A stretch of DNA of 64,000 nt from Longimicrobiales bacterium (GTDB lineage Bacteria; Gemmatimonadota; Gemmatimonadetes; Longimicrobiales; Gaopeijiaceae). The notes under the pieces are model-generated. The model saw only the letters and a list, made by a program, of their open reading frames with translations. It was not told where the DNA came from and made no database searches. Below are positions 21,550 through 25,018 of this stretch, piece after piece. Both the position numbers and the translations under genes were made by a program. The DNA is taken from contig CBDCNQ010000002.1 of assembly GCA_965219445.1 (NCBI GenBank), forward strand, positions 672,001-736,000, written 5' to 3'. Numbering within the stretch: position 1 is the stretch's first letter; each line of letters starts with the position of its first letter.

Positions 21550-22652
21550 TTCGCGGGTCGAGGGAAAACCGACATCTTTCCGAGGTCGTTCGAGGGCGTC
21601 AGCGCGCGAAAGTCGCCTGGTTAAGGCGGGCGATGGGGTCGGGCATACTAGTTCCCCATCCGCTGGCGAAGCTCCTCGAAGAAGTTGGTGACCACAAAGA
21701 ACCGTTCCTCTGACACCTCGCTCTCCAGGTCTGCGACTTGGCTGAGCATCTGTGGAACCACCAGGCGGTCCCCATCAGGATGGAGGTCTGAGGCGGGTCG
21801 GAAGTAGCCCGCCGTGAACAAGGAGTCCCTGGATAGCACCACCGGCACGGGATCTCGTTGGATGCGGGCGGCAAAGAAGGTGTCGTCGACTCTCCCAGCC
21901 TCCCTTGCGGTCCAGTAGTAGATGGTGTTGCCGTCTGGTGACCATCGGGGGAACTCACCTCCGCCCTCCGACACCAGTGTCCGTTCACCGGCTTCAGGAA
22001 AACTCCGAATGTAGATCTCCGGTGTACCCGTCTCGTCAGACCCATAAGCGGCCAGGGTCCCATCCGGTGAAACCACGATTTCGTGAAGGTTGGCCTCCTG
22101 CTCCAGGTAAGCCTCCGCCCTCGGGCTGTCCGGGTCCGAGAGATCGAGCATCCACAGATCGGTTGGCGGCGGCCCCCACTCGAACACGATCAGCGTGTCG
22201 CTCGGCCACTGCGTGGGGAGTTGAGCGCCGGGAAGTGTGATGAGGAGTTCCGCAGGCGTGTCGTTGTCCAACCTCTTCACGAACAGATCGGATCCGTCGG
22301 TTCCTTCCCGCTGGGAAGAAAACACGACACGGGTCCCATCCGATGAAGTCACAGGTCCGACATTGCTCCCTTGGAAAGTAAGCTGTCTCGGCGTCGCCCC
22401 CAGTTCTACGTCGAAGGCGAAAATGTGAGGGTCTGCTTCGCCGTCCGGGCGACTCTCATAGACCACCGACCGACCATCAGGAGACCACATCACGTCACGG
22501 AGGCTTCGTGGAGCTAGGACCAGAGGCTCTATATTACCCTCCAGATCCACGACGAGGAGCCGTTGTCCGCTACCCGTACCAGTGGTAGCAAGAGCGCCTG
22601 CTCCATACACCAGAGTCCCGTTCTGCGAGACCGCGAACCGGGCGTCGAAACC

Positions 22653-22698
22653 GTCCATAGACGAAACCGTCCATAGACGTCCATAGACGTCCATAGAC
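22653..22698. repeat. 4 copies of GTCCATAGAC (22653, 22669, 22679, 22689)
   Basis: Read directly; copies 1 and 2 are separated by GAAACC, a duplicate of the left target flank. Confidence 0.95.
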
Positions 22699-22699
22699 G

Positions 22700-22957
22700 A
22701 CCGGGGGCAAGCCGAGGCTTGGCAGAATATCGAAGATGGGTCAGCGCGATCTCAGGCGGCTCCTGATCACGGGCGCCATGACGATTGTCCACCACGCGAT
22801 CCGACGCGGCGAGACGACGGATCCGTGGCTAGCCAGGATGTTGGCACGCAAGCCCAGGATGCTGGTCGCGGTAGCGCTGGCGAACAGGATGGCGCGCATT
22901 GTCTGGGCGCTTACGACGAAGAAGGAGATCTATCGGGCTCACGCTGCCGCCGCCTGA
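22700..22957 (+). pseudogene. IS110/IS1111 transposase C-terminal fragment
   Basis: TGGKPRLGRISKMGQRDLRRLLITGA..WLARMLARKPRMLVAVALANRMARIVWAL; RuvC-like N-terminal domain absent. Confidence 0.9.
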
Positions 22958-23230
22958 CCGGGCGAAAGGAGGGAAGCCGAGAGGAGGACAGCTGTTGGGG
23001 ATGTGAGCAGGTCGGAGGACAGGTAAGGGCAAACGGTCAATGAGACGGGGTCGAGAAAACCAGCAACCGAACGGAGAGCACCGAAGCTCGCGTAACCGAT
23101 ATGGACTCGGCCCGCGTATCTCCATACAGGCCAGCGGCCAACTGAGTTGCCGCACCAACAGGCCGGATAGACGACAGCACCTGACCACATGCACCGAACC
23201 GTTCGAAGAAAAGCTTGCATCAAAGGGGGC
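22958..23230 (+). ncRNA. Putative bridge RNA/seekRNA region (boundaries approximate)
   Basis: Non-coding region downstream of tnp, as in the IS1111 subgroup; contains ACCGAACGG (target match) and ATAGACG (donor-end match). Confidence 0.65.
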
Positions 23231-23250
23231 GTCCATAGACGTCCATAGAC
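23231..23250. repeat. 2 tandem copies of GTCCATAGAC at the IS right end
   Basis: Read directly. Confidence 0.95.
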
Positions 23251-25018
23251 GTTCGGTATCGAAACTCCGTCGAATAGAGTGACGGGATCTCCGACGACTT
23301 CGCCCCGACGAGCGTCGAACGCTACGGCCCACAGGGTCCCTGAAACGTCGGCGTACAGCAGGTGCCCTGTCTCTATGTATGCGGCGTCGAGGGCGCCTGC
23401 CCGAACTACTCGCACCGAGTCCGTATCCAAGTCGAGGATCAGAGTTGAGAGAGCTACGGGGTCCGTGAAGATGACGGCCCCACCTCCGGGGAGAAGCCTC
23501 GGGTTACGAACTGATGTCGTAGGGTCTAGGAGAGGCTGGGGATCGCCCCCTGTTTCAGGAACGCGGTAGAGGCCCCGACCTCCGGCTCCGGTATGTGTGA
23601 AGACGACGGTTCCGTCGTCCCCCCAATGGAGACCAGCCACACGAGCCGCCGGGATGTCGGTCACGGTCTGCGGGGCACCTCCTGAGAGCGCCACTCTTTG
23701 AATGGACCCCTCGCCGGCGACGCCGAAGACCAATGACTCTCCGTCCGGTGAAAAAGAGGCGAAGGCGGTGCCTTCGGTTCCCGGTATAGGCCGAAAGCCT
23801 TCCTCATCGGCATTGCGCCAGTAGAGCGGCCCTCCACTGACCAGAGCGAACCGCAGGCCATCTGGGGATACCAGAATATCGCCAGAAGGGGTAAGCGAGA
23901 GGTCTCCGAGGTCAACCGACGCGAGCGTAACCGGAATTGCGGCGCGGGTCTGTTCCAGCCCCAGAGGGCGAGGGCCACGAAGAGGGCAGTGGTCGTCGCA
24001 AAGGCGACCGTCAGTCGATTCCAGGGGCCAGCCACCGTAGCAGGTCCTTGCGCGGCTACTGCCTCCGAGGTCGAGGCCGTTACGGATGTCCGAGCCCGAG
24101 CCTTGTACGTGAACCTCTCGTCCGCGAGCGCCGCAGCGAACTCAGCCGCGCTCGTGAAGCGGTCGGCGGGTAGCTTCTCCAGCGCCTGAGCGAGTGCATG
24201 GCCGACATGGGGTGGCACGGTCCTGCGCTCACTCGTGATCGACGGTGCATCCATCGTGAGGATCTTGACCAGCACGGCTTGGGCGGTTGTCGCCGAGAAG
24301 GGTGGCTGCCCGGAGAGCATCTCGTACAGCACACAGCCGAGCGCGTAGACATCAGACCGTGGGTCCACGTCCCTGTCGCCTGTGGCCTGCTCGGGACTCA
24401 TGTAGTGCGGTGTGCCCAGGCTGAGTCCGGTCTCTGTGATGCGCCCAGCACCCGCCTGAGCCACGGCCAACGCAATACCGAAGTCTGCTACGAGCGGCTC
24501 GCCCTGAGCACTCAGGAGGATGTTGCCCGGCTTGATGTCGCGGTGGACGACGCCGTTCTGGTGTGCGTAGTCGAGTGCGCCCGCCACCTTCTGCGTGATC
24601 GCCAGTGCGTCCTCCACACCGAGTTGCTTCTCGCGGTCGATCCGCTCCCTGAGTGATTCACCTTCGATGTGGGGCATCACGTAGAAGAGGAAGCCATCCG
24701 CTTCGCCCGAATCGAACAGTGGAAGGATATGCGGGTGAGTCAGGTTCGCGGTCGTCTTGATCTCGGCCAGGAACCGCTCGGCCCCTACCACCGCGGCCAA
24801 CTCGGGCTTCAGCACCTTGAGGGCTACGTTTCGGTTGTGTTTCAGATCCTTGGCGAGGAAGACCGTCGCCATCCCGCCTTCGCCGAGTTCACGCTCAATG
24901 GCGTAGCGGCCTTCGAGGGCTGCGTTGAGACGGGCGACGGGATCAGTCATGGCGGACAAGATGCGTCTAAGGGGTGTGGCGCGGCAAGGATCCTATCCTC
25001 ACCGATCTACTGAGGTGG

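Follow-up and report, generated by a model that had tools for sequence, protein, structure and literature searches.

A CG-bounded array of right-end fragments around an IS1111-family remnant and its possible origin by duplication in place

The IS1111 family of insertion sequences (IS), represented by ISEc11, ISPa11, ISKpn4 and ISPst6, is described as having a DEDD transposase, 12-bp sub-terminal inverted repeats, extensions of 7 and 3 nt beyond them (counting one core), a non-coding region downstream of the transposase gene and a top-strand guide placed ahead of the bottom-strand guide; no added bases are expected at the ends, and the word "tandem" is absent from the main text of that description (PMC11187229). 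CazIS110-1 is reported to be copied out by chemistry on the top strand only, with the target left unjoined and not regenerated, and with transfer of the right junction to new sites; tandem repeats appear there as by-products (3 of 96), in the form of whole-cargo dimers joined at the true ends, which revert (10.1101/2025.10.25.684509). In ISPpu9 and MITEPpu9, alternative circles arise from alternative ends, small modules flanked by full end boxes occur in tandem and end mutants use unexpected core dinucleotides (PMC12288879). IS621 and ISCro4/IS622 combine a 2-nt CT core, an IS110-type RNA position and a serine nucleophile with side reactions that need the donor loop only, and we found no mention of end duplications in the available text of the papers describing them (PMC11208158, PMC13626964, 10.1101/2025.05.14.653916). 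Tandems of whole elements, alternative circles and side reactions of a donor-like kind have already been published. We found no published description of arrays of end fragments that start at bare internal cores in a search of main texts in mostly open literature, in agreement with the original prediction for this DNA, whose author knew of none.

The element studied here lies in the window, by which we mean the whole 64,000-nucleotide stretch of DNA that was analysed. It has the IS1111 features listed above but, unlike that family as described, its right end is repeated and its left end is lost. Tandem repetition recalls CazIS110-1, whereas the units here are partial, begin at internal CGs and persist; it also recalls the tandem small modules of ISPpu9 and MITEPpu9, whereas the starts here are bare CGs and the units go down to 10 bp. 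The transposase is homologous to those of IS621 and ISCro4 (E 4e-8 and 3e-10) and the core is likewise of 2 nt, but it is CG, the RNA position is not of the IS110 type, and a threonine, Thr257, aligns with their catalytic serine.

The last 10 nt of the element, GTCCATAGAC, occur six times without a mismatch, starting at 22653, 22669, 22679 and 22689 on the left and at 23231 and 23241 on the right, the copy at 23231 being the native end, and a 16-bp unit, CGAAACCGTCCATAGA, is present twice (22646-22661 and 22662-22677). Every junction carries a CG (22652, 22662, 22668, 22678, 22688, 22698, 23240 and 23250), so that with a standing for TCCATAGA the locus reads GAAAC CG a CG AAAC CG a CG a CG a CG (transposase tail, non-coding region, GGGGG CG a) CG a CG TTCGGT, with an insert length of 598 bp (Table 1). 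The original prediction had placed the array, its six 10-mers, the duplicated 16-bp unit and the C|G junctions at these same positions. With one mismatch allowed, at least six 10-mer matches were also reached in 5 of 100 shuffles of the whole window, which makes this a weak test, but the six real copies are exact and clustered; the 4.56-Mb genome (G000) contains 15 exact period-10 doubles and a single exact triple, the one in the present array.

Table 1. Features of the array, the inserted element and the interrupted host gene (positions in the window)
Feature	Position	Strand	Basis or remark
Interrupted host gene for a fusion of Ser/Thr kinase and PD40 beta-propeller repeats	21599..24959	-	also frameshifted near 23935
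Left half of insertion target and CG core (GAAAC-CG)	22647..22653	+	differs from the left target guide at one base; run X12 shows the site empty
End 10-mer, first copy, abutting the left target without the full element	22653..22662	+	
Second copy of the 16-bp unit: host target bases AAAC and end 10-mer	22662..22677	+	
End 10-mer, three copies in tandem	22669..22698	+	
CG junction of element end to internal CG of transposase gene (codon 256), 3-nt overlap ACG	22698..22699	+	
3' fragment of IS110/IS1111 transposase gene, residues 257-341 and stop	22700..22957	+	identical to full ORFs G000:C2:226182 and C2:609693
Right non-coding region, predicted seek/bridge RNA gene	22958..23241	+	
Right target guide	23066-23073	+	covariation with flanks, 37 end pairs
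Left target guide	23092-23098	+	covariation with flanks, 37 end pairs
Putative right donor guide	23120-23125	+	sequence match only
Putative left donor guide	23167-23173	+	sequence match only
Internal target-like site GAAC-CG-TTCG	23196..23205	+	breakpoint of inversion in the C2:610746 copy; begins no array unit
Native right end: sub-terminal inverted repeat GGGGGCGTCCAT (internal CG at 23230), 3-nt extension AGA, core CG	23225..23241	+	
Extra end 10-mer, single	23241..23250	+	
CG core and right target half (TTCGGT)	23250..23257	+	exact complement of right target guide

The array itself is real. Contigs of the Logan collection, whose graph uses k = 31, were compared for 4 of the 14 listed runs. 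One from run X9 (623 nt, 22104-22726) and one from run X10 (185 nt, 22542-22726) span the left array without any difference or gap, a second X9 contig (23213-23800) crosses the right array with no difference, and a contig of run X12 joins 22651 to 23250, which is the empty site. No 31-mer is repeated within 22561-23330, and therefore a graph of this k would not collapse the array. That the repeats are an artefact of assembly or sequencing is in our judgement very improbable: X9 and X10 come from one study, X9 may be the assembly's own sample, and the support is from assembled contigs rather than raw reads, separate ones for the left and right arrays with no single contig covering the whole compared stretch; but the arrays are reproduced exactly by separate contigs of two samples, and one of the duplication cases outside this genome (L107) is from a cultured isolate. 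Spanning sequence without the repeats, or an array that is a normal part of the ends, would have told against the original prediction; the spanning contigs of X9 and X10 carry the repeats, and 76 of the 79 right ends of relatives that we located without the duplication pattern (see below) lack an array and show no added bases. At the present locus the additions appear secondary.

By its sequence, the 598-bp insert is a 3' remnant of an IS1111-family element whose left end is absent; no left end, and no complete element with both ends, was found at this locus. The assignment to an IS1111-type element made in the original prediction fits the transposase domains, the sub-terminal repeats, their extensions and the downstream non-coding region. 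A 542-bp core shows no difference from the 3' part of two longer copies at C2:226078 and C2:609590 of the same genome, the first with its right end lost and the second with its right part inverted and the end lost, and both encode a 341-aa IS110-family transposase with the motifs D10, E53, D90 and D93; in the full-length identical copy at C2:226182 the DEDD (PF01548) and Tnp (PF02371) domains both score above cut-off, and the window copy corresponds to residues 257-341 of it. The left repeat known from other copies, GTGGACGCCCCC, is complementary to the right repeat at 11 of 12 positions, with extensions of CG-ATGGA on the left (7 nt counting the core) and AGA on the right (3 nt). The assembly, which is 92% complete, holds four loci of this element and neither a complete copy nor the circle junction TAGACGATGGAG. 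A MITE of the MITEPpu9 type was considered and rejected, the left end being absent and the 542-bp unit as such being found once, not as dispersed identical copies. Short non-coding elements with the same right end do occur in other genomes (L139, L142 and L145 in G045; L185 in G041) and are possible MITE-like derivatives.

At the loop around residue 257 (L001:2183-3208; window 22700-22702), the sequence TTGG, which has no serine, is found in 22 of 59 distinct contexts and STGG in another 22 of the 59. Enzymes with these loops are probably functional, as multi-copy elements carry them, and a threonine may possibly serve as the nucleophile. The 542-bp unit begins exactly at the Thr257 codon, probably by chance. 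Among the other copies, the longest (L001, G000:C2:225600-227600) lacks its final 48 bp and is flanked by pieces of an integrase-like region in which att-like sequences recur. Another (L002, G000:C2:610746-610963) has no right end and carries an inversion of the non-coding region, one side of which breaks at the target-like CG inside the element. A second IS1111 element, 68% identical and with both ends but no array, is present at G000:C5:441627-443142 (L005).

Comparison of 37 end pairs of related elements showed that two positions in the non-coding region covary with the flanks: a segment about 150 nt before the end tracks the left target and CG, and one about 175 nt before it is the complement of CG and the right target. 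Here ACCGAACG stands ahead of GTAACCG, the top-strand match coming first as in IS1111, and the target that they predict is GTAAC-CG-TTCGGT, against GAAAC-CG-TTCGGT at the actual site. We conclude that the element first arrived here by normal guided insertion. Folding of the non-coding region gave a z of -1.1 against shuffles, not significant alone. Across the clade, matches to the right-target guide are loose and those to the left-target guide tighter. Some members appear programmed to insert into their own family (L030; L133, L190, L248, L262, L269 and L277 in G041; L006, L007 and L062), at a site like the right inverted repeat (GGAGG-CG-TCCATA), at the transposase start (guide CATGGACG, several nested copies) or in the donor-loop gene of a sibling.

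The search of the same genome suggested by the original prediction recovered a second array of end units and neither solo 10-bp scars nor an intact parent IS. At G000:C3:77694-79468, three 68-bp end units of the same element lie in a proper target, and another IS interrupts one of them. The interrupting IS is a different multi-copy one (G000:C3:77790-79356 and about 15 other places) with ends CGGAACCTGTC and GCAGAGAGGG and a 4-5 bp duplication at C3; several of its copies follow an AGAGGG, the sequence with which its own other end finishes.

A degenerate duplication pattern, which by its design forces the right boundary, was run over 185,579 genomes. It matched 18 loci, of which 11 are IS right ends of the clade (7 with a transposase match, 4 by end sequence only) and seven are not IS ends (L108, L110, L113, L115, L118, L122 and L124). 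The units at these right ends are 10 bp long in six cases and 12, 15, 17, 17 and 22 bp in the others, the 22-bp unit being present in about nine copies, and the records are titled Paracoccus, Paracoccaceae, other Alphaproteobacteria, Accumulibacter, Longimicrobiales and Vicinamibacterales. The exact 22-nt doublet had 0 matches in the genome contigs collection and the degenerate pattern had 0 in the viral contigs collection. A further 79 right ends were found without the pattern, 72 by transposase, element and single-end searches and 7 in a sample of 400 genomes for the family; end-anchored duplications were present at 3 of the 79 (L029, 15 bp; L100, 30 bp; L146, 92 bp), a count to be read in the light of many of these ends coming from genomes chosen for one duplication and of related elements not being independent. 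None of the 7 new ends of the family sample was duplicated, too few for a rate, and the duplication of L100 has one substitution and is missed by an exact scan. Altogether, at least 14 related elements outside this genome have end-anchored duplications with units of 10-92 bp, 11 of the 14 from the boundary-forcing pattern, and the overall range of unit length is 10 to 542 bp. Of eight units elsewhere that differ from the 10-mer, seven start after CG and the eighth after GG.

Solo right-end remnants of the kind foreseen in the original prediction do exist in other genomes, in targets that match the guides (L179, L186 and L109), beside one further solo remnant, L136. Solo scars and duplications share CGs (L179 with L114, L136 with L116). 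At left ends there was no duplication among 55 and no clear mirror junction (internal CG joined to right target) among 53, a partly overlapping set, although the excess of right over left duplications (3/79 vs 0/55) is alone not significant (Fisher p=0.27). Several look-alikes were set aside: L030, L133 and L190 have guides that show programmed insertions, the flank of L046 is common to L063 and is target sequence, L185 and L129 are internal deletions, and 89-bp double left ends are nested insertions.

Tandem duplication by microhomology-mediated template switching, in which a 3' end re-pairs at a short upstream overlap and is extended, is a close known parallel. Here, unlike in that process, one boundary is fixed at the right end of the IS, pointing to a site-specific nick, and the anchoring of duplications at the right core points to involvement of the recombinase. 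We give about an even chance to a reading in which the right end was duplicated in place, through slip-back and re-extension of an end freed by the recombinase, and the full element was then excised. The cut made by IS621 falls on the top strand, 3' of the core, and leaves a 3'-OH on the core side and a 5'-phosphoserine-blocked end (PMC11208158), and from this chemistry the recombinase is predicted to free a DNA end directly behind the terminal CG. While a copy-out gap is being filled or an excision is aborted, a strand ending in ATAGACG-3'OH would meet the blocked end, its 3' end would re-pair at an upstream CG 10, 16, 68 or 542 nt back, and host polymerase would extend it. Ordinary slippage may add 10-mers once a doublet exists, and ordinary excision of the complete element would leave the spare ends as solo scars or arrays, a sequence of duplication and excision that fits the use of the same CGs by both. 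About six events after one insertion would suffice for the present locus, in an order that is not unique: the 10-mer doubled, the 552-bp tail doubled, two more 10-mers, excision and doubling of the 16-bp unit. Excision that reseals the site, which this reading requires, has been seen for IS621 (PMC13626964) but, in the available parts of the respective reports, not for ISEc11 (PMC11187229) or CazIS110 (10.1101/2025.10.25.684509).

The same duplications would arise without polymerase slippage if the recombinase joined the right junction of one copy, off-register, to an internal CG elsewhere, either on the sister chromosome or in another copy. Slip-back and such enzyme-catalysed transfer predict the same sequence, and we regard the transfer as a possible but rather doubtful origin. 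In its favour, a G precedes every duplication breakpoint and a CG all but one, the exceptional GG fitting the relaxed first core base of IS621 (PMC11208158); end mutants of ISPpu9 recombined at unexpected AG cores (PMC12288879); CazIS110 is reported to transfer its right junction directly to a new right target (10.1101/2025.10.25.684509); and the donor loop alone supports recombination in the IS621/ISCro4 bridge systems (PMC13626964). The left junctions of C3 and L109 fall on the donor-guide site, a perfect mimic of the left donor, which suggests that these two are guide-directed joins by the recombinase, and five duplications (L117, L121, L123, L100 and L146) have only the 2-nt CG in common, weak for priming, L146 having ignored a nearby 7-nt overlap. 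Against transfer, most partner sites match the guides little (of 11 bases, 3 at the inverted repeat IRR, 5 in the transposase, 3 at the donor guide and 1 at the upstream target), the best internal target (7/11) is not used in arrays, reciprocal products were not seen among the 53 left ends, and the units, mostly of 22 bp or less, fit local realignment. Slip-back is favoured because of this poor guide match and unused best target, because the units are mostly short, and because the programmed arm of all aberrant junctions is the left one, which is the 3'-OH arm.

The original prediction had read the array as a tally, in which repeated insertion at the left target, each time excised at an internal CG, left one unit per cycle. 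Its use of internal CGs as alternative joins stands, with every junction at a CG core, but one 10-mer per cycle is not supported. Solo scars and forms with the element plus one unit both occur; the tighter left-half and loose right-half target matches of the clade make re-use of a scarred site possible, and 2-3 bases at the start of the unit agree with the right target in several cases. The 16-bp unit, however, defeats the tally: no insertion and excision in cis can place AAAC on both sides of a 10-mer, for which a mis-cut circle or a sister exchange would be needed. It also takes about 13 events, in some six of which a complete element would have to re-insert; the genome has four loci of the element, and better targets in it are empty, among them two GTAACCGTTCG sites. 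The right half of a scarred site matches the guide at 2 of 6 bases, a circle cut at an internal CG would lack the left donor arm and would deliver no further 10-mer, and the spread of unit lengths makes the 10-mer merely the product of the nearest CG. We consider the tally unlikely.

Ordinary replication slippage with no part for the recombinase, tolerated in a pseudogene, is in our view also unlikely as a full account. Slippage agrees with the shortness of the units and their 2-7 nt of microhomology, with the host gene being dead and with two deletions in relatives, L187 and L129, whose overlaps are not CG, and it probably explains growth of the 10-mer doublet. However, only one other duplication lies within 400 bp of the pattern-independent right ends, so that three of four stop exactly at the element boundary (chance anchoring about 2e-7), and the four junction types at the locus are all CG, a dinucleotide with a frequency of 0.11 per position. 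The interrupted kinase-PD40 gene is a pseudogene, and therefore the array is probably unselected; no function of it is evident. The second frameshift of this gene (window 23900-23960) is independent of the insertion.

Returning to slip-back, we tentatively suggest a more specific form, itself less likely to hold than not, in which the gap-filling strand of copy-out stalls at the recombinase-blocked right junction and stutters to earlier CGs, so that up to nine units could arise in one or a few repair events. This would affect natural insertions at a rate of a few percent and add an unreported class of scar to bridge-recombinase editing. Published models differ as to whether the element leaves its site by excision or by copy-out. 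The right-end duplications, present at pattern-independent ends and in several bacterial groups, arise naturally as a by-product and lend themselves to counting by deep sequencing, and their strand bias and polymerase dependence would separate the cut-out from the copy-out model. As the IS110/IS1111 bridge recombinases are promoted as scarless editors, duplication of the right end would be an undescribed error mode of these enzymes, and the same measurements would indicate the error to seek in edited cells.
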